64,000 nt of DNA from an uncultured Gammaproteobacteria bacterium (GTDB taxonomy: Bacteria > Patescibacteriota > Microgenomatia > 2-02-FULL-39-11), in assembly GCA_964446235.1 (NCBI GenBank), contig CAYUNW010000002.1:71609-135608 (forward strand), read 5' to 3'. The notes beneath the pieces were generated by a model. That model was not told the DNA's origin and searched no databases. It was given only the letters and a program-made list of their open reading frames with translations. Made by a program: the position numbers and the translations under genes. Below are positions 1 through 42,829 of this stretch, piece by piece (position 1 is the first letter of the stretch; every line of letters begins with the position of its first letter).

Positions 1-268
1 AATTAGAAAAAAGTTTTTCATAGCCTTTACATATTTGTTTATGATCGTGATTACCATAAATGTAAACTGTATCCTTTTTTTTAAGTATAGGAAAAAGTTT
101 TTTCCACTTGCTTTTAACAAATTCTTCTACAGAAATGATGTATCCGTCCCAAAAATCACCGTTGATAATTATACGATGGTATTGCTGAAATAGATTTTTT
201 AAATAAATAAATTGTTGTTCAACAAATTTATCTGTTAAATGCAAATCGGAAATAACAATTGTGTCCAT
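1..268 (-). CDS. Metallophosphoesterase (calcineurin-like), truncated by window edge
   Basis: Not in ORF track because it runs off the window. Reverse-strand translation from ATG (268): MDTIVISDLHLTDKF...INGDFWDGY...YIYGNHDHK. This shows the DxH, GD and GNHD metallophosphatase motifs. Confidence 0.7.
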   Translation of the reverse strand, partial: MDTIVISDLHLTDKFVEQQFIYLKNLFQQYHRIIINGDFWDGYIISVEEFVKSKWKKLFPILKKKDTVYIYGNHDHKQICKGYEKLFSN

Positions 269-273
269 GAGGT

Positions 274-1218
274 TTATTTATGGTGGAATTTATGATGAAT
301 ATCCCGTAACTGTGGATTGGTTACATGAGTATATATCTGGGTTGTAGATATATTTTTATGACCAAGCATTTCCTGAATTGATCTGATGTCAGCACCAGCC
401 GAAAGTAAATCCGTTGCAAAACTATGCCTTAAACCATGAGGAGTAATCCGAACAGGTAACTTGGCCTTTTTGGTATATTTTTCAACGATTCTTTGTACTG
501 ACCTGACAGTCAGACGATAACTTTTATCAGGATGTTGAGGATCAGCTTTTTTACCTGCATAACGGATAAATAATGGTTTATATTCATCTTTTCGGGTATC
601 CAGATACCGTTTAATCCAATTAACAGCCTGTTCGGACAAAAAAACTACCCGAATTTTCCCTCCTTTGCCTCTAACACCGAATTCTCCTCGTTCAAAATTG
701 ATTGAATCTCTATTTAAGGAAACTAATTCACTAACTCTTAATCCCGTTGAAAACAATGTCTCTAAAATCGCTTTATCCCGTAGACCTTTTTCATCAGATA
801 TTGAAGGAGAGCTTAAAAGCCGATCTATTTGATCACGGCTCAAAAACAGTATAGAACGGCTTTCAGCCCGACCCAGTTCTACTTTTTCGGCGGCTAATGT
901 ACGAATATCATTTCTGATCATGTACCTTAAAAATGATCTTACAGCAATTAAATGATAATTCTGGGTGATTTTTTTTAAAGGTAATTTGTTTTCATCATAA
1001 AAACGTGCAAGGAACAATCTGTAAGATCTGATTATATCAGTAGATATTTTACTCGGGTCGGTTACGGAATTTGGTAAATTTTTTAGATAATCGGCAAATC
1101 TGTTTAAATAATGTCTGTAATTTCTAATTGTTAATTTTGAACTATTTTTCTCGATTTCCAAATATTCCAGGTATTTATCAATCATTTCAATTATTGACAT
1201 AATTTGATTTTGCGACAT
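274..1218 (-). CDS. Site-specific tyrosine recombinase, XerC/XerD family
   Basis: 314 aa. Has an N-terminal core-binding (SAM-like) region. Catalytic motifs: GLRVSELVSL, HGLRHSFATDLL, LGHKNISTTQIYTHV. Confidence 0.9.
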   Translation of the reverse strand: MSQNQIMSIIEMIDKYLEYLEIEKNSSKLTIRNYRHYLNRFADYLKNLPNSVTDPSKISTDIIRSYRLFLARFYDENKLPLKKITQNYHLIAVRSFLRYMIRNDIRTLAAEKVELGRAESRSILFLSRDQIDRLLSSPSISDEKGLRDKAILETLFSTGLRVSELVSLNRDSINFERGEFGVRGKGGKIRVVFLSEQAVNWIKRYLDTRKDEYKPLFIRYAGKKADPQHPDKSYRLTVRSVQRIVEKYTKKAKLPVRITPHGLRHSFATDLLSAGADIRSIQEMLGHKNISTTQIYTHVTNPQLRDIHHKFHHK

Positions 1219-1228
1219 ATCTAATTTT

Positions 1229-2492
1229 TAGTCAAGTAAATAGTTCTTATACTTTTATAATTTGAGGCTATAAAACAAGACACTGTAATGGCCTTAAAAT
1301 CGAATATTATAATTTAAATGATGAGTTATTCATCAATAAATTGAGATTTGCTGATGTTACTGTAAAAACTATTTTATTTTAAGAATTTCTAAAAAGGGAA
1401 AATAAATATTTTAATGAATAATTTGGAGAATTTAAAATTTAAAAAAATAATTACAATGGAAAAGTTTGAAACGAGGTAAAAGGACAATTTGAGATGCATA
1501 CGCATATTATTAGTCGCAAAAGATATATTGTACGACGAGTTATCTTATTATTCCCTTGACTATAAATATTAGATTATATTTTTTATTGATCGTGACTATT
1601 TTTATCTCTTTTGAATAATACACTCTTACCAAAATACAAAAGAGAAGACTCTGATTATTAAGTAAATTACTGTTAAACAAACACACATTCAATATAAATT
1701 TAGAGTTTTATTAATTTGAATGTTGAACGCAATATTCAATATTAATATATTTTAAAAACACTTATAAATGAAATAGAGCGCATATTAACGCTCTAAATTG
1801 ATATTTTTGAAGCTAATTAATATTATAGAATTTTAAATCTAGTAATATTAAAAATAAAAGAGCCTCAAACAATTTTATTTATATATATTATTTAGCGCGT
1901 ATTGACTGTCTAATTAAATATTTTTGAGGCTAAAATTGTAGTAGATAATGGTTATTTAAATAGTATAAATAATTAGAGATTAGAGCTTGTTAATAGGCTA
2001 ATTATAAATATTCAAGGCTAATTATCATCATTCAATATATTATATGAGAGAAAATAAATTTGTTAAATTATTATGATTTCTATTAATAAATATATGAATC
2101 AATTTAGCCCTTTAATATGCTCCGATTATCAAATTTTGTAGCTAATCTTACGTATAAATAATATTCTTATAACTCTCCTATTTAGACTGTCAGTACTTGC
2201 TAAATCGATGTATTTGAAGCTGGATTAAGAGTATTTATTTCTTTATCTATAAAAACAGATTCAATCTCATAGAAGATAATCGAGTGAATTTAACTTATAA
2301 TTAGATTGTTATAACGCTTCATATTGCAAATAATAAGGCTAAAAAATCATACGCGACATATATTTATCTAAGGTTTCGGGTATTTTAAATTTCACTTACC
2401 TTTAATAAAATACTAAATATACTTAATTCAGTGACATTTTAAGCATAGATTAGAGCATATTGACGCTCTGTTCAAATACTTTTATGTATAAA
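1229..2492 (+). repeat. Array of at least 7 degenerate ~45-bp direct repeats in a gene-free AT-rich region
   Basis: Copies start near 1229, 1773, 1891, 1980, 2103, 2182, 2301 and 2450. Approximate consensus: TTAGAGCGCATATTAACGCTCTAAATTGATATTTTTGARGCTAAT. The best copy (1774-1817) begins with the palindrome TAGAGCG-CATATTAA-CGCTCTA. Spacing is irregular (79-148 bp). No ORF of 60 aa or more lies in 1219-2649. Confidence 0.6.
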
Positions 2493-2717
2493 TATATTGT
2501 TCAATTTAGTCATAAATAAAAAAAGAACATTGAGACTAAGGGAGCATCTACTATATTCGTATCGTGAAAACGGAATATAAACTTTTGTGAAAACTTATCC
2601 ACAATACTATAGGAATATTATTATAGGTTATTAACTATATCAATATATATCACATCACATCTAAGCCTGGGTTATTCGATACATTCCCCTGTTCCCTGTT
2701 TATTTTAAAGTAAAAAT

Positions 2718-3539
2718 TTATGACCATGATGTTGTAAAAATTGTTAATATTAAAGTAAATATAAAAACATAAATAAATTCTTTTATTGAATTTCTGAATA
2801 GTCGACCGGATAGTTTCAACTGAAACACAGATACCAACATATAATATGCAGATGTTATCAATAATGAATATGTAGCAATTTGTACCGGCCAAAACGACAA
2901 AACGGCTCCTAACTCCCCTATCCCCAAAGCGGTAATCATAGTCATCTGGAGTAATTCTTCAGAAATATTTTCTTCTAAATCTACACTCCATAAAGATTGC
3001 AATGAAAGTAAAAATCCAATTATTGTCGTAATTAAGAAAATACTATAAAAAGGCCAACGGAAGGAATATATAATATTTGAGAATAAGAATATAATTATTA
3101 AAGAAATTAACATTCCTACGCTTTGTGCCGCCCGAGTAAGTTGAATAGATCTGACAACAGCAACATTAAATATATTTTCTATTAATAATACGGCGTAACT
3201 AGATATTGCAAAAAAAACTGTCACAATAGATTTATATACGACTCTATTAGGAAGTAAAAAATAAAATAGTGAAACTGATAGAGTAAGTAATACTGGTAAA
3301 ATAAATAAAAGTATCCATTCATATTTTTTTATATCTTCTTTTAATGACCATGTTGTCAGAATATACGTTAAAAATGAGATGAAAACAGCTAAAATAAACT
3401 TATATTCGTTAAAATATTGTTGAATAACTAAAATTCCTGCAGTCAATATTAAAGATTGGATTAAAAACCGCTGACGTTTATCCAAAAACATAATTATGGT
3501 TAGTTTTTTTTGAAAATTTGTTATTATTTCCGTCATCAT
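2718..3539 (-). CDS. Polytopic membrane protein, unknown function
   Basis: 273 aa, almost entirely hydrophobic helices. No recognisable catalytic motif. Confidence 0.6.
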   Translation of the reverse strand: MMTEIITNFQKKLTIIMFLDKRQRFLIQSLILTAGILVIQQYFNEYKFILAVFISFLTYILTTWSLKEDIKKYEWILLFILPVLLTLSVSLFYFLLPNRVVYKSIVTVFFAISSYAVLLIENIFNVAVVRSIQLTRAAQSVGMLISLIIIFLFSNIIYSFRWPFYSIFLITTIIGFLLSLQSLWSVDLEENISEELLQMTMITALGIGELGAVLSFWPVQIATYSLLITSAYYMLVSVFQLKLSGRLFRNSIKEFIYVFIFTLILTIFTTSWS

Positions 3540-3542
3540 ACT

Positions 3543-4280
3543 TTATATTTCATTTTTCAGTTTACAATTGGTATACACATGCTGAATATCGTCATTCTCT
3601 TTGAGTATTTTTATAAGAGTGTTTATTTTTTCATACTTTTCTTGACTAGCTGGAACAATATAGTTATATGGTTTATATATTAGACCTATTCTTAATATTG
3701 TTACTTGATATTTATCAATTTCAATTTTGATTGCATGAAGATTTTGTGGAAGCGTATAAATATCGATAAAATTACTACCCTGATTAAAATCTGCTACATC
3801 TGTTTCCATAATAAATTTATCAAAATTACTTTGAGTAATTGATTTTGCATCTATAGTAATGCAACCCAAACGTTGGAAAAGATAAGATACGGCTCCGGCA
3901 GATACCATTACTGCGTTATTTCTTTCTAATATATTTTTTATATCAGAAACGGTTCTTGAATTATTATCAGTTGCAGCTTCTATTATAAATCCAATTTCCC
4001 CATATAACGCTTCATATATATTCTCTTCCAATTGACCATACTCTCCCCTGTCTATAGATTTTTCTATAGCTCTACTAATATTTTCTTTTGGCATATTGAA
4101 ATTTTTTGCATTTTCAATTGCCAATCTTAGTTTGAAATTTGTATCGGGATTGATATTTCCTTGACCGCTTTTAACTGCAATAATTATGGCTTTTGTTAAC
4201 TTTGTAAATAATTTACCTTTTATGGCATCCGTTGTTTCTTTTTGATGTTTAACTTTAGACCATTTAGAATGACCGGACAT
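3543..4280 (-). CDS. YebC/PmpR family DNA-binding transcriptional regulator
   Basis: The MSGHSKWSKVKHQK N-terminus is diagnostic of the YebC/TACO1 family. I prefer the ATG at 4280 over the track start at 4367, which adds 29 aa. Confidence 0.85.
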   Translation of the reverse strand: MSGHSKWSKVKHQKETTDAIKGKLFTKLTKAIIIAVKSGQGNINPDTNFKLRLAIENAKNFNMPKENISRAIEKSIDRGEYGQLEENIYEALYGEIGFIIEAATDNNSRTVSDIKNILERNNAVMVSAGAVSYLFQRLGCITIDAKSITQSNFDKFIMETDVADFNQGSNFIDIYTLPQNLHAIKIEIDKYQVTILRIGLIYKPYNYIVPASQEKYEKINTLIKILKENDDIQHVYTNCKLKNEI

Positions 4281-4365
4281 ATATTTTAGGGTAATCTTTC
4301 GGTTATTATATATATCTACTTGACATTTCTCAACTATCTCGCTTAAACTACTTAAAATTATTACC

Positions 4366-5067
4366 ATGGATAATATATCTACACTCTCAAATAATGCTAT
4401 TAATTCCGCTTTAATTGAAGATTGGAATAAGGCTATTGATATAAATAAAAAAATACTCGAAATTCAACCACATAATATCGATGCTTTGAATCGACTTGCC
4501 TATGCATTTTGCCAAAACGGAAATTACACGCAAGCCAAAAAAATATACAAACAAATATTAATTATTGATAAATACAATAATATTGCAACAAAAAATCTAG
4601 ATCGAATTACCATTTTGTCAGAAAACGATAAATTCTATAACCATAAAAAAAGCTCAAAAACACATATCTCTCCATGTAAATTAATCGAACAACCAGGAAA
4701 AACAAAAACAATCGTATTATCTAAAATAGCTCCTAAAAATGTCCTTCTGAAAGTCTCTATCGGTAATGAAGTCTGTTTAATTAATAAAAAATATTCAGTA
4801 GAAGTTAGGACTAATGAAGGACTTTATATCGGGCAATTACCTGATGATATTGCTTTTCGTTTAATAGTATTATTAAAAGCCGGTAATGAGTATTTGTCAT
4901 ACATCAAAAATATCCAAAAAAATAAGGTTTCCGTATTTTTAATAGAAAATAAAAGAGGGAAAAAATATGCAAATCAACCTTCTTTTATAAATAAATCAAT
5001 TAATCCGATTCAACGTAAAAAATCATTAAAAAATTCATCTAAGAAATTCAAGACTTCAGATGAATAA
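4366..5067 (+). CDS. TPR repeat protein
   Basis: 233 aa. TPR-like helices in the N-terminal half (IDALNRLAYAFCQNGNYTQAKKIYKQIL) and a basic C-terminal tail. Confidence 0.55.
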   Translation: MDNISTLSNNAINSALIEDWNKAIDINKKILEIQPHNIDALNRLAYAFCQNGNYTQAKKIYKQILIIDKYNNIATKNLDRITILSENDKFYNHKKSSKTHISPCKLIEQPGKTKTIVLSKIAPKNVLLKVSIGNEVCLINKKYSVEVRTNEGLYIGQLPDDIAFRLIVLLKAGNEYLSYIKNIQKNKVSVFLIENKRGKKYANQPSFINKSINPIQRKKSLKNSSKKFKTSDE

Positions 5068-5217
5068 TTTTTTCTTTAACGAACAATATCACGCCTGACA
5101 GTTTCTTTTTAGGACGAATTTTTATGTTTTTTATTTCCTTCAAAGCGTTGCTTTCTTTTCTTACAGAATTGATTGCTAAAATAAAAGATAAAATAAAGAT
5201 TACAAAAATAACATATA

Positions 5218-6201
5218 TCATAAAATAAATTCCTCACCTAGTATTATATCAATATCAACTTGATTAGTTTCATTTTCCAAAAAATTACTTTGGCAATTAT
5301 ATGATTTCAAGATAAGATTAAAAATTTTTTTTGTAGTAACATTTTTATTGTAATAATTTATGATACATGAAGAATTTTGAATATCTCTACCTGTTTCAAT
5401 AAAAATAACATTAGAACCAAGTCTTTCTAGTATTTTAGAAAAATTAGTAGCTACCATATCACGTCCTGATGAGTTGATAATTCTTAAAGTTACATCTTCC
5501 GTTCTTACATCTATATCCTGAAAAGAATTTTGAAAATGTTCATCAAATTTAGAAATATTAACTTTTTTTCTTTGAGACCCATCAGCAATAATTATATCTT
5601 CGATAATTCCTTTTTTAAATAAATCATGAAATTCCAATTGATCTTGCCTTAATTTGGAAAACAATCTGTATAATCTGATCTTATCTATTAATTGAAGATT
5701 TAAATCTTTAATAAGAAATAAATTCGGAAAAGAAATTATATTTTTAATTATTTTAAAATCCGAATCAGAGTTAACTTTTTTTGTATTGATAATATATATA
5801 TCAATCGGTAAATGAAAAGTTGTTTCAATGCTTCTGGAAATCAATTCCGGACCGGATATTTTTTTATCGATATCAGCTAATGGTCTAATACTTGATAATG
5901 GATACTCGTCATAGCCATATGGAACACTTAATAATAAATCACCCGGTAAATCAAATAATATTGCAGAATCCTTATGTTTGTCATAAGAAATAATATAAGT
6001 GACTTGATCTTTTTGAAAAGAATTGCTTGTACCATTTTGAAGGAGAACATTTATACGATTATTTGTAAAAAATATTGAATCATGACTGTTTAATCTATAT
6101 ATAATTATTACAAATATTGTTAGTATTAATAGTAATATTATATTTATAATGTATTTTATATTTCTTTTTTTAATGCGATGATTAATATTATTTTTGATCA
6201 T
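5218..6201 (-). CDS. LytR/CpsA/Psr (LCP)-like cell-envelope protein, divergent
   Basis: 327 aa with an N-terminal TM anchor. The segment SAILFDLPGDLLLSVPYGYDEY resembles the LCP core (siPRDl.v.ip). The C-terminus looks like a LytR_C domain (VTLRIINSSGRDMVATNFSKILERLG). Confidence 0.45.
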   Translation of the reverse strand: MIKNNINHRIKKRNIKYIINIILLLILTIFVIIIYRLNSHDSIFFTNNRINVLLQNGTSNSFQKDQVTYIISYDKHKDSAILFDLPGDLLLSVPYGYDEYPLSSIRPLADIDKKISGPELISRSIETTFHLPIDIYIINTKKVNSDSDFKIIKNIISFPNLFLIKDLNLQLIDKIRLYRLFSKLRQDQLEFHDLFKKGIIEDIIIADGSQRKKVNISKFDEHFQNSFQDIDVRTEDVTLRIINSSGRDMVATNFSKILERLGSNVIFIETGRDIQNSSCIINYYNKNVTTKKIFNLILKSYNCQSNFLENETNQVDIDIILGEEFIL

Positions 6202-6913
6202 TATCTTGATGATTAATAATTTCTTTTAAATCTTTGGGTAAATCGGATGAAAAATTAATCTGTTTATTGATTTGAGGATCTTTAAAAGAAATAAAATGGC
6301 AATGAAGGAAAAGTCTTGAACAAAAACTATTACTTAAAACCAACAACTTAGGATTAGCGTATAATTTGTCACCTACTACCGGATATCCTATATATTTCAA
6401 ATGTACTCTAATTTGATGAGTACGTCCTGTAAGCGGTTTAACATTTAATAATGAAAATTCCATACCATTTATATTGTAAACCTTAATCAACGAAAATTTT
6501 GTTAAAGCTTCCCTTCCAGAACTAATTACAGTAAATTTTCTTCTATTTGAAATTGATCTACCTATTGGAGCGTTTATTTCTCCTTCACTATAACTTATTT
6601 TAGAATAAACCAAAGTGTAGTATTCTTTCTGTACAAGTCTTACTTTGAACTGATTTTGTAGATTTATAAAAGTAAACTCATCTTTTGCTACGAGAATCAA
6701 TCCTGAAGTCTCTTTGTCTAATCGGTGTACTATTCCACAACGATCAAAAAAATCGTTCGATTCAGATTTTTGCTTGAATATTTCATATCGTTTATAGATC
6801 CAATCTTGAAGTGTATCTTGAGGTGAATTAAGGGACTTATTTACTACGAGATTAGTTGGTTTATTAAGTACCAAATAATGTTTATTTTCATAAACTACAG
6901 AAATTTTTCCCAT
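6188..6913 (-). CDS. RluA-family pseudouridine synthase
   Basis: HRLDKETSGLILVAK catalytic Asp motif and GRTHQIRVHL motif. No S4 domain. Confidence 0.85.
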   Translation of the reverse strand: MGKISVVYENKHYLVLNKPTNLVVNKSLNSPQDTLQDWIYKRYEIFKQKSESNDFFDRCGIVHRLDKETSGLILVAKDEFTFINLQNQFKVRLVQKEYYTLVYSKISYSEGEINAPIGRSISNRRKFTVISSGREALTKFSLIKVYNINGMEFSLLNVKPLTGRTHQIRVHLKYIGYPVVGDKLYANPKLLVLSNSFCSRLFLHCHFISFKDPQINKQINFSSDLPKDLKEIINHQDNDQK

Positions 6914-6938
6914 ATTGAAGCAAGGAAGAATTGCGGTT

Positions 6939-7319
6939 TTATTTTTCCTGTTTTATCTCGCATTTAACACAGAAATTTGCTGTTATTTTTATAGAAAGTC
7001 TTTCCTTTTCTATAACCGATCCGCAATTTTCACATTTACCGTATTTCCCATTTTTAATTCTTGTCAACGCATGTTTAATATCATTAAGTTTTGCCTGTAA
7101 AGTTTTTTCAAGAGCCTCTACTCTTTCATGATTACTTTCTTCACTTGCGTCTGCGTCTGAAGCAGCATTATCGGATAATCTTTCAGGATCAGAATATGGA
7201 TCTTGAACTTTTAATGAACTCAGTTGTTTTTCAACTGTTAAATGTTGGTTATAAAGTTCTTTTTCTATTTCATTTAAATAAGATTTATCGAGCATTATTT
7301 TTTCCTTTCTTGGTAACAC
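6939..7319 (-). CDS. DksA/TraR-family C4 zinc-finger protein
   Basis: 126 aa. Coiled-coil N-terminus and C-terminal CENCGSVIEKERL...ANFCVKC four-Cys finger. Confidence 0.75.
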   Translation of the reverse strand: MLPRKEKIMLDKSYLNEIEKELYNQHLTVEKQLSSLKVQDPYSDPERLSDNAASDADASEESNHERVEALEKTLQAKLNDIKHALTRIKNGKYGKCENCGSVIEKERLSIKITANFCVKCEIKQEK

Positions 7320-8061
7320 TTATAACTTTAATTTTAGCATATAATGGATACACTGTAACAAACATAATTATCAATGAAAATATTTGTCGGTAGCTTAAAT
7401 GAAATAAAGCGGCATTGTATATTTTCAAAAATTCAGTGAAAAATATCAGAATTGAAGATAAAAATAAAAATGCATAAAATAATAACCCATCATGGAGTTT
7501 AAATTTATTTTTATAATTCAATAGAATTGTAAGTAGAATAAAAATCATAAAATAAATAATCATTTCAATAGCCTCTACAGGCCATCTTTTACCTAATAAA
7601 CCAATTATTCTTACACCTATAAAGCTAGTGGTTTCTCTACCGAAACTTGCTCCACCTAACTGTTCACCGGCTTTTGCCAATGATAACATCAGTGAAAAAG
7701 CAACAGTAAATATATCAGCGATATATAAAAATTTCCATTTTTTTAGACGGACTAAAATGAAAAGAAATAAAAATCCGCTAAGAAAACCTCCAAGTAGCGA
7801 CAATCCCGGAGCCTCCCTTACTAAAAAGTATCTCAAAAAATTGAATTTAAATTGATCGAAATTTTGAATAATATAGAATATACGTGCAAAAATAATTGAC
7901 ACTAAACTGGTATAAAGATACAAATCTAAATACGGTTCTTCTTTGAATTCATCTTTTGAGTAACGATATATAATGAACGTTGAAAGTACAAACGAAATTG
8001 CTAAAAATAAGCCAAAACTATATACATTAAAATTATTAACGGTTGAAATAACAGGATACAT
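7285..8061 (-). CDS. lgt: Prolipoprotein diacylglyceryl transferase-like membrane protein
   Basis: 258 aa polytopic protein. N-terminus (YSFGLFLAISFVLS) and mid-protein LGGASFGRET resemble Lgt motifs. The match is weak, so the symbol is tentative. Confidence 0.45.
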   Translation of the reverse strand: MYPVISTVNNFNVYSFGLFLAISFVLSTFIIYRYSKDEFKEEPYLDLYLYTSLVSIIFARIFYIIQNFDQFKFNFLRYFLVREAPGLSLLGGFLSGFLFLFILVRLKKWKFLYIADIFTVAFSLMLSLAKAGEQLGGASFGRETTSFIGVRIIGLLGKRWPVEAIEMIIYFMIFILLTILLNYKNKFKLHDGLLFYAFLFLSSILIFFTEFLKIYNAALFHLSYRQIFSLIIMFVTVYPLYAKIKVISVTKKGKNNAR

Positions 8062-8079
8062 AGATATAATTTTATATGC

Positions 8080-9315
8080 TTATATTTTTTTTGTAAATAA
8101 ATAAGGTACTTTACCCGGTAAATAAAAAATTGATAAAAAAATTATCAATATTGACAATATTAATAGAGTTTTTCCAATCCCCATATAATCAGCTAATATA
8201 CCGGATACCATTACAGGAATTAGAGCAACTCCTCCGGTTATCGAAGTCAATAAACCATAGATACCAGCTCTAGAACTATTATCTCCTTCTTCCTGCAAAA
8301 CCGTATTTGCAGGAACACTGATAAAAGAAAGACAAGTTCCTAACAGAAATAATAAAAAAGTTATAAAAATGATATTAAAATTATCAAAATTCTCCACAAA
8401 TGATAAAAATAGTAATATTAAACCATTAGAGACGAGTCCTAAATAAATTATTTTACTTTTTAAAACTACTTTTCCTAAAATTCCTACAATAAATGCACCT
8501 ACTATCAAACCAAAAGCGGCCGGTCCCATTACTAAAACAGATGCATCTGTTAATTTAATCGACAAAACCTTATCGGCAAATCCCGGCGCTAAAACAGACA
8601 ATACCGCGATTAAAACCTGGGTATATGACATTAAAAGAATACTTTGTAAAATTCTTGAATTAGAAATTATTAATTTAATCAAATTTTGAAATCTGGAATA
8701 TATTGATCGAATTTCAAATATTTTACTTGATATTATTTTATTATCATAATTTGGTAGCAAAAAAAGGAAATATGATGAAATAAACATTAAAATAACCGAT
8801 ACGATAAAACTACCCTGAAAATTAATAATATTTACAAGAGGACCTGCGAAGACATAACCTAAAACCGTAGATAGATAAAAGCTTATGGTAAATAATGAAT
8901 TTGCTGATAATAATTCTTTCTGAGGAACCAAAAGAGGTATAGATGGAGCTTCCGCTGGGATAAAAAATTGGGTTACTACAGAAATTAAAAATGCTAAAAA
9001 ATATAAAATTGTAATATTATCATAAAAAAGGACAAACAAGATTAGAATTAATGCCCTAGTGAAATTCCCATAGAACAATACTTTACGTTTATCTAGCTTT
9101 TCGACAATTACTCCTGCAATTATGCCGAAAAAAACCGCCGGAAAACCTATCATAAAAAGCATCAATGATACTGCTGCATTTGATTTGGTTAAATAATAAA
9201 TCTCTATCATCAATAAAAAAGACAAAATATTTAAGGAGATTTGAGAAAAAATTTGTCCATACCACAATGATCTGAATTTATTATTTACGATAATTGGGGT
9301 AAATGGATTAATCAT
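8080..9315 (-). CDS. MFS transporter
   Basis: 411 aa, ~12 hydrophobic helices. MFS-like loop between TM2 and TM3 (VEKLDKRKVL). Confidence 0.7.
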   Translation of the reverse strand: MINPFTPIIVNNKFRSLWYGQIFSQISLNILSFLLMIEIYYLTKSNAAVSLMLFMIGFPAVFFGIIAGVIVEKLDKRKVLFYGNFTRALILILFVLFYDNITILYFLAFLISVVTQFFIPAEAPSIPLLVPQKELLSANSLFTISFYLSTVLGYVFAGPLVNIINFQGSFIVSVILMFISSYFLFLLPNYDNKIISSKIFEIRSIYSRFQNLIKLIISNSRILQSILLMSYTQVLIAVLSVLAPGFADKVLSIKLTDASVLVMGPAAFGLIVGAFIVGILGKVVLKSKIIYLGLVSNGLILLFLSFVENFDNFNIIFITFLLFLLGTCLSFISVPANTVLQEEGDNSSRAGIYGLLTSITGGVALIPVMVSGILADYMGIGKTLLILSILIIFLSIFYLPGKVPYLFTKKI

Positions 9316-10804
9316 TATATGAGGTTAGATAATCTAGAAAAAATTTCACACCAAAACCTGATGCTCCTTTTTTCTGATATTGATTATCATTTTCATTAAA
9401 AACAGGTCCAGCTACATCTAAATGAGCCCATGGAGTATCATTGATAAAATAACTTAAAAATAATGCTGCAGTTATAGCGCCACCGTACCTGCCAGTTTGT
9501 ATATTTTTTATATCGGCTATATTACTTTTAAGAAGGTCCATATATTCTTTTTCAAGAGGCATATACCATAATTTTTCTCCAGACATATCCGCACTTTTTT
9601 TAATTCTTTGGACCATTTCTATTTTATTTGACCACAAACCGGCAATTTTATCGCCTAAAGCTACCATACAGGCTCCCGTCAAAGTAGCAACGTCAAATAT
9701 CTCATCTGGTTTATATGTCAAAACAGCATAAGATAATGCGTCCGCTAGAGTTAATCTTCCTTCCGCATCAGTATTTAAAACTTCAATTGATTTTCCTTTA
9801 TACACTTTCACAATATCTCCTGGTCTTAAAGATCTACCTGAAGGCATGTTTTCACACGCTGGAATAATTCCAATTACCTCATGTTGACTGTCTAAACATG
9901 CTAGTGACTGAAATATCGACAATACAATTGCTGCTCCTGCCATGTCAATTTTCATGTTTTCCATATGTTCGGGATTTTTTAAAGATAATCCACCGGTATC
10001 GAAAGTTATTCCTTTACCGGCAATAACAATTTTTTTTAACGGTTTTATGGGTTTATAATGAAGAATTATTAACTTAGGTTCTTGATAACTTCCCTGGCCT
10101 ACTCCCAAAAAAGCGTTCATCCCTAGTTTTTGAATTTGTACTTTATCAAGAACTTTAACTTTGACATTATTTTTTGATTCTTTGGCTATTTTTTCAGCCT
10201 CATTTGCCAAATACGAAGGTGTAGTAACATGCGCTGGTTCATTCACTAGATCCTTTGCGTAATTTACCGACTTTGCAATAAAATAACCTTTTTCAATTCC
10301 GTCATGAATATTTTTTAGAAGCGCAGGCGGCAGGGAAATAAATATTTTTTTTAGATTAAAAGAATCATCATTATTTTCTGTTTTATATCTATCGAATTTA
10401 TATAGTACTGTTTCAGAAATTATTGTGATATTTTTTAATATGGTATCAATCGGGAATTTTTCGTACCATTCTTTAGGTAAATGAACCTCTATAATAAGAT
10501 TTTTATTAACTTCAGTATATAAAATTGCAGATGCAAAAAGCGTATTGATTTCACTTATATTTAAATCTTCTTTTTTACCAATTCCGTATAGTATTATTTT
10601 TTTATTATTTTCATCAAAATTATGATTATAAATTAATGTTTGGTATTTCCGTGCATTAAACTTTTCCCGCTCAATTATAGTTTTTATTTTCTGAAATAAT
10701 TTATCTCCTAATAAAGTTAAAGGTTTAAAATCATCCTGACTTAACAAAAATAACAAAGTATCTGATTTTGTTTTTGATATTTCTGTGGTAACTGAAATTT
10801 CCAT
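9308..10804 (-). CDS. pepA: Leucyl aminopeptidase (M17)
   Basis: 498 aa. M17 signature NTDAEGRLTLADAL, plus GKGITFDTGG. Confidence 0.9.
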   Translation of the reverse strand: MEISVTTEISKTKSDTLLFLLSQDDFKPLTLLGDKLFQKIKTIIEREKFNARKYQTLIYNHNFDENNKKIILYGIGKKEDLNISEINTLFASAILYTEVNKNLIIEVHLPKEWYEKFPIDTILKNITIISETVLYKFDRYKTENNDDSFNLKKIFISLPPALLKNIHDGIEKGYFIAKSVNYAKDLVNEPAHVTTPSYLANEAEKIAKESKNNVKVKVLDKVQIQKLGMNAFLGVGQGSYQEPKLIILHYKPIKPLKKIVIAGKGITFDTGGLSLKNPEHMENMKIDMAGAAIVLSIFQSLACLDSQHEVIGIIPACENMPSGRSLRPGDIVKVYKGKSIEVLNTDAEGRLTLADALSYAVLTYKPDEIFDVATLTGACMVALGDKIAGLWSNKIEMVQRIKKSADMSGEKLWYMPLEKEYMDLLKSNIADIKNIQTGRYGGAITAALFLSYFINDTPWAHLDVAGPVFNENDNQYQKKGASGFGVKFFLDYLTSYND

Positions 10805-10869
10805 ATTTTTGATACAATATTGTTTTATTGACTAGATTAGTTATACAAAATATAATCAGGACAGTCAAC

Positions 10870-10955
10870 GCCGAGGTGGCGGAATTGGCAGACGCGCAGG
10901 TCTCAAAAACCTGTCCCGCTAAAACGGGGTGAGGGTTCGATTCCCTCCTTCGGCA
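10870..10955 (+). tRNA. tRNA-Leu (anticodon CAA), class II with long variable arm
   Basis: Acceptor GCCGAGG/CTTCGGC. Anticodon stem CAGGT/ACCTG with loop CTCAAAA. Variable arm TCCCGCTAAAACGGGGT. T arm GAGGG-TTCGATT-CCCTC. CCA is not encoded. Confidence 0.9.
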
Positions 10956-10963
10956 CTAATGCT

Positions 10964-12289
10964 TTATTCTCTTTTTTTCTCTACTCCGTAAAATCTAATT
11001 CTATCCCCTTTAAATATCAAATCTATTTCGCCCAAAGGACCATTTCTGTGTTTAGCGATTAATAATTTAACTATCTGCTGATCCCAATTTTCCATCTGCA
11101 CATCTTCACGATATAAAAACATAACTACATCTGCATCCTGTTCTATAGCTCCTGACTCCCTCAAATCAGCTAATTGCGGAACTTTACTTCCTCTAGATTC
11201 AACAGCTCTGGATAATTGGGATACAGCTATAACTGGAACCTTCAATTCTCTAGCTAAATTTTTCAGGGATTGTGAGACCAAAGATACTTCCTGAACTCTA
11301 CTGTCAAATTTTCTTCCGGGATCTACAAGCTGAAGATAATCTACAATAACCAATTTCACATTATGATTAACCAATAGTCTTCTGGCTTTTGTTCTGATAT
11401 CAAAAATATTCAAGCCCGGAGAGTCATCTATAAAAAGAGGTGCTTCAGCTAATTCCCCCATTGCTTGAGACAGTTTTGTAAAGTCATCATCTGTTAGTCT
11501 ACCTGTTTTTAACCTCCAAGCATCCACATCTGCTTGTGAAACCAATAGACGATCGACTAATTCCTCTTTACTCATTTCAAGCGAGAATATGCCAACTGTT
11601 TCTTTCAGCTGAACTGATACATACTGGGCAATATTCAAAATAAATGCTGTTTTACCTTGTCCGGGTCTGGCAGCTAATATAAGTAAATTTGAATTTTGCA
11701 TACCGGCTAATTTATTATCAATATCGGTGAAACCGGTAGAAACTCCCCTTAATGCCGATCCTTTTTTATGTAGCTCGTCAAGTCTGTCAAAGCTTTCTGC
11801 AAGCGCTTCTCTTATGGGTATAAAATCACGATGAGATCTTCTTTGAACTATAGAAAGAATTTCCGCTTCGGCATTGTCCAGTATTTCTTTTGCTTCCCTT
11901 TTATCGTCAAAAGATGTTTCAGCAATTTTTGCACTGGTAGAAATAAGTTGCCGCTTAACGTAATAATCGGCAATTATATTGGCATAATGCTCAATATTAG
12001 CACTTGTAGCTACAATATTTGTCAATTCAGATAAATACGCTGATCCCCCTATTTCTTTGAGTTTTCCGTCTTTTTTTATCTGTGCTGTAACAGTAACTAG
12101 ATCTATAGGTTCATGTTTCTCAAAAAGCGTTACAATAGCATTATAAATATTCTTATTTGCATTTGTATAAAAATGGTCCGGTTTAAGAAAGTCAATAACT
12201 TCAGCAATAGCATCTTTATCAATTAATATTGCTCCGATTACTGACGCCTCGACATCTTTGTCGTGAGGTGGAATTCGTGCTTGCGGCAT
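10964..12289 (-). CDS. dnaB: Replicative DNA helicase DnaB
   Basis: 441 aa. N-terminal PPHDKDVEASVIGAIL, Walker A ARPGQGKTAF, and C-terminal RecA-like fold motifs. Confidence 0.95.
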   Translation of the reverse strand: MPQARIPPHDKDVEASVIGAILIDKDAIAEVIDFLKPDHFYTNANKNIYNAIVTLFEKHEPIDLVTVTAQIKKDGKLKEIGGSAYLSELTNIVATSANIEHYANIIADYYVKRQLISTSAKIAETSFDDKREAKEILDNAEAEILSIVQRRSHRDFIPIREALAESFDRLDELHKKGSALRGVSTGFTDIDNKLAGMQNSNLLILAARPGQGKTAFILNIAQYVSVQLKETVGIFSLEMSKEELVDRLLVSQADVDAWRLKTGRLTDDDFTKLSQAMGELAEAPLFIDDSPGLNIFDIRTKARRLLVNHNVKLVIVDYLQLVDPGRKFDSRVQEVSLVSQSLKNLARELKVPVIAVSQLSRAVESRGSKVPQLADLRESGAIEQDADVVMFLYREDVQMENWDQQIVKLLIAKHRNGPLGEIDLIFKGDRIRFYGVEKKRE

Positions 12290-12295
12290 ATAAAA

Positions 12296-12940
12296 TTACT
12301 CAATGTTATAAATTGTGGTTTCTACAGGTAGATTTTCCCGGGTAAAAGAAAATTTACTACCTGTAACTATTTTATCGTTAGGGAATTCTTTAAAAAAATC
12401 GTCTTTGGAAAACAAATCGGAAAAGACATCTTTGTTTAATTCAGCATTTTGATGATGCATCGGAATCACAACTGGTGGTTCAATATTTTTGATTAATTCT
12501 ACAGCTTCTTTAATCCCTAAGGTGAAATGACCTCCTATAGGGACGAATAATATATCAATTCCGTCAAGGGCTTCTATAGATTTTTCATTTAAAATATGAC
12601 CTAAATCACCTAAATGAACAATATTCAGCCGATCAATTTCATAGTGATATATCGTATTAAGACCTCTGTCTTTTCCCTCGGAATTATCATGATAGGATTT
12701 GATACCAATAATTCTAGTACCTCCAATTTCGTATTCACCTGGGGCATAAATAATGAATGGATTCTCTTCGATTAATTCTATGAAATTATGATCACGATGC
12801 TGGTGTGATATGGTAACTATATCTGCTTTCTGTTTTTGGTATTTAATTCCGACATATTTTGGGTCAAAAGGATCAGTAATTATTGTAATTTTTTTACCTT
12901 TTAGTTTAAATGATGAATGTCCAATTTTGGTAATATCCAT
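12296..12940 (-). CDS. Metallo-beta-lactamase fold hydrolase (UPF0173-like)
   Basis: ISHQHRDH metal-binding motif. I prefer the ATG at 12940 (MDITKIGHSSFKL) over the track start at 12994. Confidence 0.75.
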   Translation of the reverse strand: MDITKIGHSSFKLKGKKITIITDPFDPKYVGIKYQKQKADIVTISHQHRDHNFIELIEENPFIIYAPGEYEIGGTRIIGIKSYHDNSEGKDRGLNTIYHYEIDRLNIVHLGDLGHILNEKSIEALDGIDILFVPIGGHFTLGIKEAVELIKNIEPPVVIPMHHQNAELNKDVFSDLFSKDDFFKEFPNDKIVTGSKFSFTRENLPVETTIYNIE

Positions 12941-12994
12941 AGTTGAATTATAATTAAGTATTGTATTTTTATCACTTTTAGCTAATCTTGACAA

Positions 12995-13453
12995 GTGTCA
13001 AACAGAGGCTATATCATGGTCAGTATGAAATCAGATAACATAATCGCGGTTGCCGGAGGTTTTTTGTTCGGAGCAGTATCGGCAATTTTACTCGTAAATT
13101 CTACAAATATTATCAATTATTTTAAAAAATCCGAAACATCAAAATCACTACCTATTCCGACAACCACTGAAAATAAAAACGTTTTATCACTTTTAACAAT
13201 TACTGAACCTCCTAATAATTCTATTCTAGCTAGCTCCAGCGCTCAAATTTCAGGAAAATCAAGAATTGGAGATAAAATCATATTGGAAACGGAAGAAGAT
13301 ATTTATTATGGCAAAACAGACAATGACGGTAAATTTAATATAAGTGTGAAATTAATTGAAGGATTAAATAAAATAAATATTTTTTCATATGCCCAGAATG
13401 TTGATACAGAAACGCAAAAAATTAATTTATTTTATACTGCTGAAAAAATATGA
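12995..13453 (+). CDS. Membrane-anchored hypothetical protein
   Basis: 152 aa. One N-terminal TM helix followed by a beta-rich region. The track start is GTG; the ATG at 13016 is an alternative. Confidence 0.5.
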   Translation: MSNRGYIMVSMKSDNIIAVAGGFLFGAVSAILLVNSTNIINYFKKSETSKSLPIPTTTENKNVLSLLTITEPPNNSILASSSAQISGKSRIGDKIILETEEDIYYGKTDNDGKFNISVKLIEGLNKINIFSYAQNVDTETQKINLFYTAEKI

Positions 13454-14217
13454 TGAGTTATAAAAAATATATATTACTTTTTATAATTACGTTATCGATT
13501 TGTTTTTTAAGTTTGTTGCTTAATCCTTTTCTAATTATCGCCCAGTCAACCCCCAGCGCTACCATCAGTACAAACAATAACGATATGATTGATAAAATAA
13601 AACAGATTGAAAACCTTAAAGAGAAAATCGCTACCAAGGTTGCAGAAATTAGGAAAAGTGAAATTATGCTTGTAACAGGAAATATAAATAAAATAAATGA
13701 TAATGAAATACAATTAGAAACAGAAAAAGGTGTAAAAACTATATTTGTAGGAGAGGACAGTAATATTTATGAAATAACAGGTAATTCCAAGAAAAATCTA
13801 AACCAAAAAGATTTATCCCCTGGAACAGAAATTTCGGTTTTAGGTTATCAATCAGACGATAACTCTACCCTTTCTGCAAAGTTTGTCTATATCTACGATA
13901 ATAAAATAAGGTTAAACGGTAAAATACTCAATATTGATAAAGATAATTTTACACTGACAGTGAAAACTAAAGACGGAGAATATGAACTGAACTTCGAAAG
14001 ATCCTCTAAGGCCAATCTTATAAATAAAACTGATACAGTAGAAAAAAGCGGATTTTCAAAAATAAAAGTCCAGGACTTCATACACGCATATTGCCAAAAA
14101 AACGAAACAGAAAATTCCTACTCAATCATCAAGTTACTGCATTTTAATTTCGATTCAGCACAATCAACTGTTTCTGCCAAAAATTCTTCTCCATCAGCTA
14201 CCGTCAAACCAACTTAA
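13450..14217 (+). CDS. Secreted hypothetical protein
   Basis: 255 aa with an N-terminal signal-like helix. Its start overlaps the upstream stop (ATGA). Confidence 0.5.
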   Translation: MMSYKKYILLFIITLSICFLSLLLNPFLIIAQSTPSATISTNNNDMIDKIKQIENLKEKIATKVAEIRKSEIMLVTGNINKINDNEIQLETEKGVKTIFVGEDSNIYEITGNSKKNLNQKDLSPGTEISVLGYQSDDNSTLSAKFVYIYDNKIRLNGKILNIDKDNFTLTVKTKDGEYELNFERSSKANLINKTDTVEKSGFSKIKVQDFIHAYCQKNETENSYSIIKLLHFNFDSAQSTVSAKNSSPSATVKPT

Positions 14218-15293
14218 TGAACAGTGTAATCAATAACTTATTTTCAAGATTAAAAAAAAACCGCAGTATTCAGAAATCAGCTTTTTTCGTTTCATCAAAA
14301 TATAACGTAAATTATATTATTAATTCTTCATCCAACACTATTAAGAATCGAGAAGTATTTCTGATAATAACTTTCAAAAAAATATTTTACCTATATTCCA
14401 GTCTTATAAAACCGGATGATAATTTATCTGAATTATTAAAATTAGAAATGGTTAAATTTTCAACATATGAAGATTTAATAAGCAAAATTAAGATAATTAT
14501 ATTTCAAAATAGAATTTCAACTCTATTTTTTGAAAATTATGATTTAAAAGTCATTGAATTCACAAGAATCCAATCCAGAGTGAAAATTGAATGCAAACCA
14601 GTTAATACACTTTTCGAGCAAATAAGATCTCTCAAAAACGAAAACGAAATAAATAACATAAAAAAAGCCTGTCATCTTGCAGATAAAGCAATGTTTTTTG
14701 CCGCAACAAAATTCAAAACAGGAATTACCGAAATTTCACTAAAAAATCAAATCGCAGATCATATATCAAAACAAAATTGCGAATTAGCTTTCGATACAAT
14801 AGTGTCTTTTGGTAAAAACACTGCCATTCCACATCATCAATCAGATAATAATTCATTACAAAAGAAAGATATCATTCTTATAGATTTAGGAGTCAAATTC
14901 AATAATTATTGCTCTGATATTACACGAGTTTTTTTTCATCATAATACCGAAACTACCATAAGAAAAATTTATGATTTTGTTCATAATGCCCAAAAAATTG
15001 CTCTTAAAATGCTTAAACCGGGAATAAATGGAAAAGATGTAGATAAAAAAATTCAAAAATTTATAAGAAATACAGGTAATATCCCCTATTCACATGGATT
15101 GGGCCATGGTCTGGGACTGGAAATTCATGAGTTACCGAAATTACATAGAAAATATAATTATTTTTTATCTAAAAATAACGTTATTACTATCGAACCAGGT
15201 ATTTATATCCCCTACTGTTTCGGTGTACGGCTAGAAGACACAGTTTTGGTTACTGATAATGGTTATGATAGTCTTACAAGTTTCTCTAAATAA
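14217..15293 (+). CDS. M24-family Xaa-Pro aminopeptidase
   Basis: 358 aa. HGLGHGLGLEIHE and the DLG...D metal ligands of the pita-bread fold. Confidence 0.85.
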   Translation: MNSVINNLFSRLKKNRSIQKSAFFVSSKYNVNYIINSSSNTIKNREVFLIITFKKIFYLYSSLIKPDDNLSELLKLEMVKFSTYEDLISKIKIIIFQNRISTLFFENYDLKVIEFTRIQSRVKIECKPVNTLFEQIRSLKNENEINNIKKACHLADKAMFFAATKFKTGITEISLKNQIADHISKQNCELAFDTIVSFGKNTAIPHHQSDNNSLQKKDIILIDLGVKFNNYCSDITRVFFHHNTETTIRKIYDFVHNAQKIALKMLKPGINGKDVDKKIQKFIRNTGNIPYSHGLGHGLGLEIHELPKLHRKYNYFLSKNNVITIEPGIYIPYCFGVRLEDTVLVTDNGYDSLTSFSK

Positions 15294-15370
15294 ATTGTAA
15301 TAATAAATGACGATTCTATCTAGATTTTTTATCTTGTACTAAATTCTAATTATTGTTAATATCAATTAAT

Positions 15371-16672
15371 ATGCTGACAGTAAAAAAACTACCGGGATTC
15401 AGAGACTTTTTTACACAAGATATTCAAGTTAGGGAATTTGTAATAAGTACTTTCAAAAAAATATTTGAAAAGTACGGTTATGAACCACTGGAAACCCCTG
15501 CATTGGAATATGCCAGTATATTTTCCAGTGAATCGGGACAGGAAGCAGAAAAATTATTTTTTAAATTTAAAGATCAGGGCAATAGAGATATTATGCTTAA
15601 ATATGAAGTGATGATCTCCATGTGCAGAGCTGTTGCTGAAAATTTCAATAATATTCAATTTCCCTTTAAAAGATATCAAGTTCAACCCGTATGGAGAGCT
15701 GAAAGACCCCAAAAAGGCCGTTTCAGGGAATTCACCCAGTGTGATGCTGATACTATCGGGAGTTCATCAGTTATATGGGATGCCGAATTCATTCAAATGG
15801 GAATTGAAGCTTTAGAAAAATTAAATTTTAATAAATTTAAAGTTAATATTTCTAACAGAAAATTTCTAAACGGTTTAATAATCTATGCCGGAGCTGAACA
15901 AAAAGATTTTATTCCTATTTGTATGAGCATAGATAAACTTCCGAAAATCGGAAAAGAAGCTGTTTATGATGAATTAATAAATAAAAAAAATATTTCAAAA
16001 AATATTGTTAATAAAATACTTGACGCAATATCTTATCAGGAAGAATTCAAAAAACTTTTAGTTCAATATAAGAAAATTATGTCAAATATTGATATTGCTA
16101 TAACCGGTCTAAATGAACTTGAAATAATCTATAAATATCTTAAATTATTAAATATAGATGAAGAGAAATATTGTTTTGCTCCTTATATCGCTAGAGGATT
16201 AGCCTATTATACCGGCCCTGTCTGGGAATTCGAGATAACTGACGGACAGGTTGGATCCATTGCCGGATGCGGGCGATATGATGATACGATTGGTCATTTT
16301 TTAGGTAAAAAAATTCCCGCAACCGGTGGTTCTTTTGGTATCGAAAGAATCGTTCAAATAATTCAGGATAGAAATATGTATAATATCCAAACCTCCAAAA
16401 CTAAAATTCTGGTAACTATCTTTAATCCGGACTTATTTGACTATTCAATAAAAATTGCTGATTACTTACGAAAAAATCAAATAAATACAATGCTTTATTC
16501 GGACCCTGATAAATTAGATAAACAATTAAAATATGCGGATAAAAAAGGTATTCCGTATGTCATTATTGCCGGACCAAATGAATATCAAAACAACACAATA
16601 CTTCTTAAACATCTTCCATCTAAAATACAATTTGAATCCAGGATAGAAGACATATTGTCTAAAATAAAATAA
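15371..16672 (+). CDS. hisS: Histidine--tRNA ligase
   Basis: LPGFRDF, RYQVQPVWRAERPQKGRFREFTQCDAD and GGSFGIERI motifs. I prefer the ATG at 15371 over the TTG at 15353. Confidence 0.9.
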   Translation: MLTVKKLPGFRDFFTQDIQVREFVISTFKKIFEKYGYEPLETPALEYASIFSSESGQEAEKLFFKFKDQGNRDIMLKYEVMISMCRAVAENFNNIQFPFKRYQVQPVWRAERPQKGRFREFTQCDADTIGSSSVIWDAEFIQMGIEALEKLNFNKFKVNISNRKFLNGLIIYAGAEQKDFIPICMSIDKLPKIGKEAVYDELINKKNISKNIVNKILDAISYQEEFKKLLVQYKKIMSNIDIAITGLNELEIIYKYLKLLNIDEEKYCFAPYIARGLAYYTGPVWEFEITDGQVGSIAGCGRYDDTIGHFLGKKIPATGGSFGIERIVQIIQDRNMYNIQTSKTKILVTIFNPDLFDYSIKIADYLRKNQINTMLYSDPDKLDKQLKYADKKGIPYVIIAGPNEYQNNTILLKHLPSKIQFESRIEDILSKIK

Positions 16673-16680
16673 CTAGCAAA

Positions 16681-37907: not shown

Positions 37908-37911
37908 GTTT

Positions 37912-39033: not shown

Positions 39034-39247
39034 AGATTCTACTATTGTAAAGTGAATTGATGATATGTTCAAGCAGAAAATTCAGTCTATAAATTCAAAA
39101 TTTAAATATCAATTTCAAATCAAACTCAAAACTCAAAATAACCGTATAAGTGTTTATAAATTTGATCATTTAAATTTGAATTGATTTTAAGAATGTGTTA
39201 TTTGAAATTTATTGGTCCAATTAAATTGGGATTTGAGATTGTAAGGA

Positions 39248-39290: not shown

Positions 39291-39293
39291 GGC

Positions 39294-39857: not shown

Positions 39858-39891
39858 GATCAATGTATAGGATAGCAATATTTTTTGATAT

Positions 39892-42823: not shown

Positions 42824-42829
42824 TGCGGT

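Follow-up and report, generated by a model that had tools for sequence, protein, structure and literature searches.

Organization of the Locus

The DNA analyzed here is a stretch of 64,000 bp of contig CAYUNW010000002.1 (the window). Between the gene of a Xer-type tyrosine recombinase (xer) and the gene of a DUF5656 membrane protein, it contains a gap of 1,499 bp (1219–2717) in which neither an open reading frame (ORF, here of at least 90 amino acids) nor a protein-like remnant is present. The GC content of the gap is 0.234, against 0.342 for the window. The original prediction, made from the window sequence alone, described this gap as by far the longest non-coding stretch, and it is indeed the longest ORF-free stretch of the window; the runner-up is 734 bp. 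The gap was also described as divergent from the recombinase gene, which is incorrect. Both xer and the DUF5656 gene are on the minus strand, and the gap is upstream of xer and downstream of DUF5656. The minus strand of the window is called the gene strand below, and the anatomy of the locus is read on this strand. In this direction, a cluster of DnaA boxes is followed by seven copies of a ~43-bp unit and then by a 28-bp site resembling dif. We call this arrangement the module. The genes and the single features are as follows.

274..1218, minus strand: xer, encoding a 314-amino-acid tyrosine recombinase of the XerC/XerD/XerA type
1288..1463, minus strand: AT/T-rich tract past the dif-like site on the gene strand; the homology is one of position only, as the whole region of the window is AT-rich
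1511..1538, minus strand: dif-like site TCGTCGTACAA-TATATC-TTTTGCGACTA (11-6-11; arms inverted at 8/11 positions)
2563..2603, minus strand: DnaA-box cluster, with a perfect box at 2595–2603 (TTATCCACA on the plus strand) and two relaxed boxes
2605..2652, minus strand: AT-rich conserved block, with two copies of TGATATAGT followed by CCTATAAT and CCTATAGT
2718–3539, minus strand: DUF5656 membrane protein (Pfam family), conserved upstream neighbor
3543–4367, minus strand: YebC (Pfam family), conserved upstream neighbor (the pair spans 2718..4367)

The locus was compared with 80 related xer loci from Gottesmanbacteria- and Levybacteria-like genomes, with about 20 kb of DNA per genome. One of them, L036, belongs to OY969569.1, in which the module is located near 452–454 kb of 995 kb. 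The order YebC-DUF5656-gap-xer is kept in 64 of these 80 loci. In the relatives, GC-poor ORF-less DNA of about 1 kb or more is always present directly past DUF5656, and no ordinary gene is seen at this position. In some species, unrelated housekeeping genes are inserted ahead of xer. A second recombinase between the dif-like core and xer was considered and rejected, as the genes found there encode AP-endonuclease-like TIM barrels, a transaldolase, a kinase, and others. The conserved synteny and the recurrence of GC-poor ORF-less DNA indicate that the gap is a conserved non-coding feature and not the debris of a pseudogene.

The product of xer scores 245 bits with the NCBIfam model of XerD, 245 bits with that of XerC, and 218.8 bits with that of archaeal XerA, whose cut-off is 220. 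Its scores with the two integron integrase models are 123 bits for TIGR02249 (cut-off 265) and 72 bits for NF011946 (cut-off 435). The nearest relatives are 57–68% identical and come from metagenome-assembled genomes of Gottesmanbacteria, Levybacteria, and other Microgenomates.

The 28-bp dif-like Site

The consensus of the dif-like site is ATGTCGCACAA-TAATAC-TTTTGCGACGT, with arms inverted at 9/11 positions. It is found in 72 of the 81 sequences (the window and the 80 related loci), with one full intergenic copy in each ~20 kb. The arms are nearly invariant, and most of the variation is found in the central 6 bp. The distance between this core and xer is 0.3–4 kb in 64 loci. The copy in the window is identical to the dif of Bacillus subtilis at 17/28 positions and to that of Escherichia coli at 14/28 positions, a similarity that is weak evidence if taken alone.

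Archaeal dif sites share about 14/28 positions with bacterial dif, and the 28-bp site qualifies on essentially the same criteria as those of the archaeal dif prediction (PMC2958812). In archaea, dif sites have flanking inverted repeats, which were suggested to be partner-binding sites (PMC2958812). In the single-recombinase systems XerS and XerH, dif is genetically linked to xer (PMC5357621). Recombinases of the XerA type are reported to act without FtsK. An action of the adjacent Xer at the dif-like site would fit the linkage to xer and the viral copies described next.

The core is also found in viruses. A search of IMG/VR revealed three viral contigs that contain it in intergenic DNA (L089, 11360–11383; L090, 2354–2377; L091, 10454–10477); about 0.1 matches would be expected by chance. 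A terminase and portal or head proteins are encoded by two of the three. All three are without the array of units, the DnaA boxes, and xer. The viral copy of the core looks like an attP, and the pattern is that of elements integrating at dif through the host Xer. These contigs may represent Xer-dependent integrating phages of bacteria of the Candidate Phyla Radiation (CPR).

Beyond the dif-like site on the gene strand, the purine-rich sequence GGAGAAGTGG is conserved at 20–30 nt past the site, and the T-rich tract then follows. In the 72 sequences, the GC content of this tract is 0.12–0.14 lower than the mean of the locus, and T is more frequent than A at +75..+150 past the site.

The 43-bp Units

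Seven copies of the ~43-bp unit are found in the gap, all on the minus strand. With a hidden Markov model (HMM) of the unit, trained mostly on other species, they score 8.2–32.1 bits, above all of the 50 shuffles (maximum 6.1 bits). Besides, leave-one-out searches with nhmmer were performed, in which three of the four best copies served to build a model and the fourth was sought across all 64 kb. Each omitted copy was the best non-training match (E = 1e-3, 2e-6, 0.44, and 0.027). The repeat similarity thus holds under statistical alignment. The units and the additional copies of their terminal motif, the box, are as follows.

1260..1270, minus strand: isolated unit box TAGCCTCAAAT, ~45 bp upstream of the xer start codon; weak HMM match, model positions 1–11
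1774..1815, minus strand: u1, the best copy, TAGCTTCAAAA..TTTAGAGCG-TTAATA-TGCGCTCTA; 32.1 bits over 1777–1815; leave-one-out E = 1e-3
1861..1869, plus strand: lone box in the orientation opposite to that of the array, reading AGCCTCAAA on the plus strand
1891..1932, minus strand: u2; 26.5 bits over 1892–1932; leave-one-out E = 2e-6
1979..2020, minus strand: u3; 16.9 bits over 1980–2020
2103..2144, minus strand: u4; 15.5 bits over 2104–2144
2182..2221, minus strand: u5, weak; 8.5 bits over 2191–2221
2300..2341, minus strand: u6, weak; 8.2 bits over 2308–2341
2450..2492, minus strand: u7; 16.6 bits over 2450–2483; good palindrome, degenerate box

Most of what had been described for these repeats stands. 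At least seven direct copies had been counted, and all seven are recovered, two of them (2182–2221 and 2300–2341) weakly. The palindrome TAGAGCG-N8-CGCTCTA is present at 1774–1795 and, in a version of 21 nt, at 2451–2471, and so are the extra boxes at 1261–1270 and, inverted, at 1861–1869. A TTTGARGCTAA box was said to end every copy, but it is missing from the one at 2450–2492. The palindrome of u5 fits that of u2 better when inverted. The spacers between the units are 23–107 bp long and contain no ORFs.

The consensus of the unit is TAGCCTCAAAA-N8-TTTAGAGCG-N6-CGCTCTAAA, which on the gene strand is also written TAGCCTCAAAAaT-N5-TTTAGAGCGTTAaTAcGCTCTAAA. In each unit, three half-sites that are related to each other follow at distances of about 16 bp: the box GCCTCAAAA, TTTAGAGC, and GCTCTAAA. 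The box resembles the right half-site GCTCTAAA. The palindrome has a 9-6-9 geometry, in which the T-rich ends of the half-sites (TTTAGAGCG) point outward. Units of one array are about 60–80% alike. The consensus does not contain RYYYAAC/GTTRRRY, in agreement with the earlier observation that the repeats do not match the attC consensus.

In the window and the 80 related loci (about 1.4 Mb), all 81 unit matches with E < 0.01 are located within the gap between DUF5656 and xer. The plus-strand matches have one orientation, and the few minus-strand matches overlap those at the palindromes. A search of the gaps only revealed 101 units in 27 sequences. The closest clade has 3–7 units per genome, and distant lineages have 0–1 recognizable unit. 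These distant lineages retain the heptamer of the box, often in inverted pairs. The heptamer is enriched 10-fold in the gaps, and in other lineages it is also seen right of the core, in inverted orientation (27 vs. 4).

The order of DnaA boxes, units, and dif-like site is constant. From the DnaA block to the start of the first unit there are 40–90 bp, and from the start of the last unit to the core there are mostly 245–285 bp. In three related species (L014, L015, and L021), six units are orthologous one by one (e.g., L015, 8625–9105). The lengths of their spacers are kept, with 33–35 bp and 61–63 bp alternating, while the spacer sequences have diverged. Such conservation of length without sequence fits a geometric constraint on bound proteins. 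Recent tandem duplication was considered as the source of the 182-bp periodicity in these three species and was rejected, as Tandem Repeats Finder found nothing and the spacers differ. The spacing of units is irregular (66–127 bp), with a weak periodicity of ~9.5 bp (R = 0.34; the species are not independent).

Several short sequences around the units are also conserved. The spacers of L014, L015, and L021 contain the small motifs GTGCTAATGG, GGGGTGAAAG, and AAAACATT. Downstream of the array, past the last unit, there is the short motif AAAACCCGAAAG (2368–2383 in the window). Two contigs from two other samples (L003 and L004), which are 100% identical to the window, end at 2098 and 2097, at the edge of u4. 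A possible cause is structural variation of the array among strains; another is a drop of coverage in AT-rich DNA. A metagenome scan for the sequence at this break (2099–2126) gave no match, in a collection without contigs of this organism.

No sign of RNA structure was seen in the units. Nine palindrome pairs of 46 units were compared with a control in which the partners were shuffled; the pairing was 76.8% vs. 76.4% and the covariation score 0.162 vs. 0.160. A/C at column 24 and T/G at column 37 of the unit alignment vary independently. As single strands, two of the seven units of the window fold better than their shuffles and five do not. Nothing is conserved beyond the 43 nt of the unit, and neither a promoter nor a terminator is found per unit. 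Rfam gave no match for the window and seven relatives, at the gathering thresholds as well as at E <= 1, and RNAalifold predicted 0 pairs around the 28-bp site in 45 species. The absence of covariation, promoters, terminators, and Rfam matches suggests that the units are DNA sites for a protein, and not RNA, attC, or clustered regularly interspaced short palindromic repeats (CRISPR). The units form an ordered array of DNA-level character, whose place, order, orientation, and spacing are conserved, and a sequence-specific protein is likely to bind them.

DnaA Boxes and the AT-rich Block

The perfect DnaA box is TGTGGATAA on the gene strand, and it is the sole perfect DnaA box in the window. Two relaxed boxes, TTTTCAC(G/A) on the gene strand, are located at 2586–2593 and 2563–2570. 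The three DnaA boxes within about 45 bp and the AT-rich repeats compose a block conserved in 53 species. Compared with the flanks, the gaps are enriched 33-fold in the perfect box and 28-fold in TTTTCACG. On the gene strand, the AT-rich block reads TGATATAGTtTGATATAGT..CCTATAAT..CCTATAGT and runs into the perfect DnaA box. Its consensus in about 45 species is TGATAtAGTtTGATAtAGT..cctATAAT..cctaTAgT, immediately ahead of the DnaA box. The repeats of the block gave no match to DnaA-trios. A second cluster of DnaA boxes right of the core, as in a bipartite origin, was looked for and not found.

A link of this gap to Xer recombination and replication had been proposed. It is supported by the dif-like site at 1511–1538 and the DnaA boxes at 2563–2603, both of which the original prediction missed.

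Strand Skew around the Module

In the window, the GC skew is negative throughout and most genes are on the minus strand. No skew switch is seen within -61 kb/+3 kb of the dif-like site. The skew at third codon positions (GC3 skew) was examined in 52 species, within 10 kb on either side of the module. In 51 of them, the gene strand is rich in G (and in T) to the left as well as to the right of the dif-like site, whatever the orientation of genes. The magnitudes are alike on both sides within a species and reach 0.5–0.9 in some. The most extreme values are seen in L047, L075, L072, L034, and L057. The genome of the window agrees with this pattern over 3 kb.

The remaining species is L011 (CAZGOA010000003.1). 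Here the sign of the GC3 skew is reversed precisely at the module, with +0.12 on its left and -0.13 on its right (z = 2.7 and -4.3), in the polarity of a terminus. The module of L011 is located at ~5.6–6.4 kb of the locus, its gene order is as in the others, and the DnaA boxes are kept.

A linear cumulative GC skew, with one strand G-rich around the entire chromosome, was reported in 2020 for complete Microgenomates genomes by Kadnikov et al., who proposed an adjacent origin and terminus, or unidirectional theta-type replication, and named no locus (PMC7143001). The result from 51 of the 52 species extends the strand G/C disparity reported for these few complete genomes (PMC7143001).

Two simpler placements were considered and rejected. 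One is a plain oriC, judged by skew or gene order: there is no switch of origin polarity and no dnaA, and the genes of the left flank point towards the module. A search with a dnaA signature regex, which is a weak test, found none within 10 kb in 85 loci, nor within 61 kb on one side in the window. It had been stated that GC skew and further DnaA boxes could identify the gap as plain oriC; the DnaA boxes are present, but the origin-type skew switch and a dnaA signature nearby are missing. The other is a replichore-scale terminus deduced from gene convergence. The minus-strand block right of xer is only local, extending over 7–9 kb before pilB and pilT.

Other Features of the Neighborhood

A minus-strand block folD-gyrA-(H+-pyrophosphatase)-gyrB-holB is located 1–10 kb past xer in at least 46 species (L001, 11579–13026; L008, 12014–20926; 45 further loci). 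Past this block, pilB and pilT are encoded on the opposite strand, which is the gene strand. An IS200-like transposase is present in this region of L008. The YebC ORF as listed begins 29 codons ahead of the match to the family model (residue 30, MSGHSKW...); its true start is probably the internal ATG.

The GC content of the window climbs from ~0.27 in the first 17 kb (1–17000) to 0.35–0.43 later (37000–56000). The ORF-free stretch of 734 bp is at 42499–43232. It contains a palindromic element twice (~42926–43005 and 43016–43105), which reads GTCATTCT(A/G)AG...GAAGAATC...GATCCTTCA...TTCAGGATGAC. Rfam gave no credible match for this stretch.

A Proposed dif Region with an Accessory Array

The interpretation we prefer, with a probability of about 40%, is that the locus is a dif region, in which the array on one side of the dif-like core serves as an accessory or architectural element by which events at this core are controlled. 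The dif-like site for the adjacent Xer would be the core of a chromosome-maintenance locus, and the units would be an ordered, one-sided array of candidate sites for a sequence-specific DNA-binding protein. The array and the DnaA-box block at its far end might assemble a nucleoprotein complex beside the core. This complex would control the core, and would most likely give Xer recombination a directionality, so that only dimer resolution takes place.

The accessory role is favored because the array is anchored in its distance to the core, is one-sided and polar, and has a conserved geometry, and because other lineages have the box motif across the core as well. It is also favored because the Xer is XerA-like. 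Accessory DNA adjoins the cores of cer and psi and the crossover sites of res. By analogy with these sites, the array would modulate recombination rather than replication.

The core itself has counterparts. XerS-difSL, XerH-difH, and archaeal XerA-dif share with it an 11-6-11 imperfect inverted repeat, linked to a lone xer and conserved clade-wide, and archaeal dif is likewise flanked by repeats. The module differs from these single-Xer/dif systems in having no skew switch in 51 of the 52 species, and in having a DnaA cluster and an array of 0.3–0.9 kb on one side. The array is best compared with cer and psi, where XerCD acts with PepA, ArgR, or ArcA, and with res. All of them have one-sided, ordered, candidate or known protein-binding DNA by the core, in which spacing matters. 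Such DNA would supply selectivity for resolution without FtsK. The known regions are ~120–180 bp long (~180 bp in cer and psi), abut the core, and bind known proteins, whereas the DNA here is longer, varies in copy number, and is ~220 bp off the core.

Several observations weigh against this interpretation. The likeness to dif is modest: 2.85% of the 28-mers in the window reach at least 13 matches to E. coli dif. The lack of a skew switch at the site in 51 of the 52 species is unlike what is expected for a canonical dif. The DnaA boxes have no explanation under a role in recombination. The array (300–900 bp, 1–7 units, variable among genera) is longer and more variable than known accessory regions, and its units begin at a distance instead of abutting the core. 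The locus has no candidate regulator gene linked to it. Linkage of PepA (M17 peptidase) was considered as a clue to an accessory factor and was rejected, as it is within 10 kb in a few loci only, a count limited by the flank length. Finally, the phage copies have no array, so that the core presumably recombines without the array on one partner.

Alternative Explanations

Next in plausibility, though we doubt it, comes a co-located origin and terminus. The module would be an origin beside dif, from which replication proceeds one way, and the units would be iteron-like sites or a polar fork barrier. In iteron plasmid origins and in Vibrio chromosome 2, one or more DnaA boxes are likewise followed by an array of direct repeats. 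The DnaA-box cluster with AT-rich direct repeats, strongly enriched and present in 53 species, resembles RK2 oriV, pSC101, and Vibrio cholerae oriCII (12-mers, 39-mers, and a DnaA box). Replication from iteron plasmid origins frequently runs one way, and this would agree with a strand asymmetry without any flip. The unflipped skew, the linear skew of complete genomes (PMC7143001), and the presence of gyrB, gyrA, holB, dnaB, and ssb within 1–20 kb are consistent with this explanation. Against it, there is neither a switch of origin polarity nor, by the weak regex test, a dnaA signature nearby; the boxes number only three, of which two are relaxed; and the module of L011, including its DnaA boxes, is at a terminus-type switch. 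Iterons are 17–22 bp long, in helical register, and accompanied by a rep gene. The units here are 43-bp palindromic ones with irregular spacing, a dif-like site lies inside the region, and no rep-like or rctB-like gene is a neighbor. A barrier role is disfavored by the usual rule that the leading strand is G-/T-rich, which sends the fork from the DnaA boxes through the array to dif.

It can be speculated further that the module is a combined origin-terminus of Microgenomates, an idea we regard as slightly more doubtful still. DnaA would open the box/AT block, one-way replication would end by the dif-like site about 0.3–1 kb off, and the array would impose or regulate this cycle. If true, it would explain both the linear skew (PMC7143001) and the unflipped skew at dif in 51 of the 52 species.

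A fork trap at a terminus is unlikely. The units would be Ter-like polar barriers for a Tus- or RTP-like protein, on a bidirectional chromosome whose forks meet at dif. R1 and R6K Ter sites help to keep replication one-way, and RTP sites consist of a core plus auxiliary sites. As in Tus-Ter, RTP-Ter, R1/R6K Ter, and the Sal-box arrays of ribosomal DNA, the units are polar, same-oriented sites near a terminus or dif, and they lie on one side of the dif-like site. The inverted boxes across the core in other lineages, the terminus-type switch exactly at the module of L011, and the palindrome with its asymmetric flank, which loosely recalls the RTP core and auxiliary sites, point in the same direction. 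However, the skew remains unchanged for at least 10 kb past the module and the inverted boxes in 51 of the 52 species, which indicates that forks pass and are not usually stopped at the module. Besides, the known Ter sites of bacteria are spread across tens to hundreds of kb instead of being grouped in a 1-kb array, and there is no sequence similarity.

Partition is even less probable as the function. Under this explanation, the array is a centromere-like site bound by a ParB- or SopB-type protein. F sopC is composed of 12 43-bp repeats, each with an inverted repeat, and the ~43-bp unit resembles it in its inverted repeat, copy number, and single orientation. In addition, the half-sites TTTAGCGC/GCGCTAAA are reminiscent of the operator of KorB, TTTAGCSGCTAAA. 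Both resemblances are leads only. In contrast to sopC, the units are irregularly spaced and not tandem, their half-sites are 16 bp apart and not adjacent, neither parA nor parB is found adjacent or among the 31 family-annotated genes of the window, and nothing links the array to segregation.

An equally poor candidate is the proposal that each palindrome is a crossover site, as in an integron, a set of multiple dif sites, or an inversion switch. The original prediction had compared the locus to an integron platform and to multiple dif-like sites, and neither comparison is supported. As in an integron (intI, attI, and attC), a tyrosine recombinase gene is adjacent to imperfect palindromes, and their 9-6-9 geometry is like that of a tyrosine-recombinase core. 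The two assemblies from other samples that break at the edge of u4 could also indicate structural polymorphism. However, the recombinase is not IntI, being far under the integrase cut-offs. The units have no R''/L''-L'/R' organization or hairpin constraints, and the spacers contain no genes and thus no cassettes. The half-sites are unrelated to the dif-like arms in sequence and polarity. The arrays are orthologous and collinear between species without inversion or shuffling of units, and the phages contain copies of the 28-bp site but none of the units.

Transcribed RNA, either tandem small RNAs as once suggested or one long structured RNA, and debris of a CRISPR or a pseudogene are the least credible: a promoter-like TTGATA-17-TAATAT upstream of the DnaA box, the anti-Shine-Dalgarno-like CCUC in the box, and a superficially CRISPR-like pattern of conserved repeats and variable spacers are outweighed by the folding, covariation, promoter, terminator, and Rfam results above, by the divergence, irregular spacing, and orthology of the units, by the lack of cas among the annotated neighbors (no search aimed at cas was made), and by the place, order, and spacer length conserved across genera, which exclude debris.

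Implications for Microgenomates Chromosomes

No description of the module or of the 43-bp unit was found in the literature and family databases. The parts are of known kinds, namely a dif-like core, DnaA boxes, and an array of binding sites, while their combination and the unit are new. To our knowledge, no genetic manipulation of CPR bacteria has been achieved yet, and neither their dimer resolution nor their sites of replication start and stop are known.

Judging from the copies of the core in phages, CPR phages may integrate via the host Xer, which could aid the assignment of hosts and eventually the development of genetic tools. The module offers three testable objects: the 28-bp Xer site, the 43-bp candidate protein-binding unit, and the DnaA-box block. 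It is a concrete, sequence-defined candidate, in more than 50 species, for where the Microgenomates chromosomes with one-sided skew start, stop, and resolve. The module may mark where these chromosomes are resolved and perhaps replicated.

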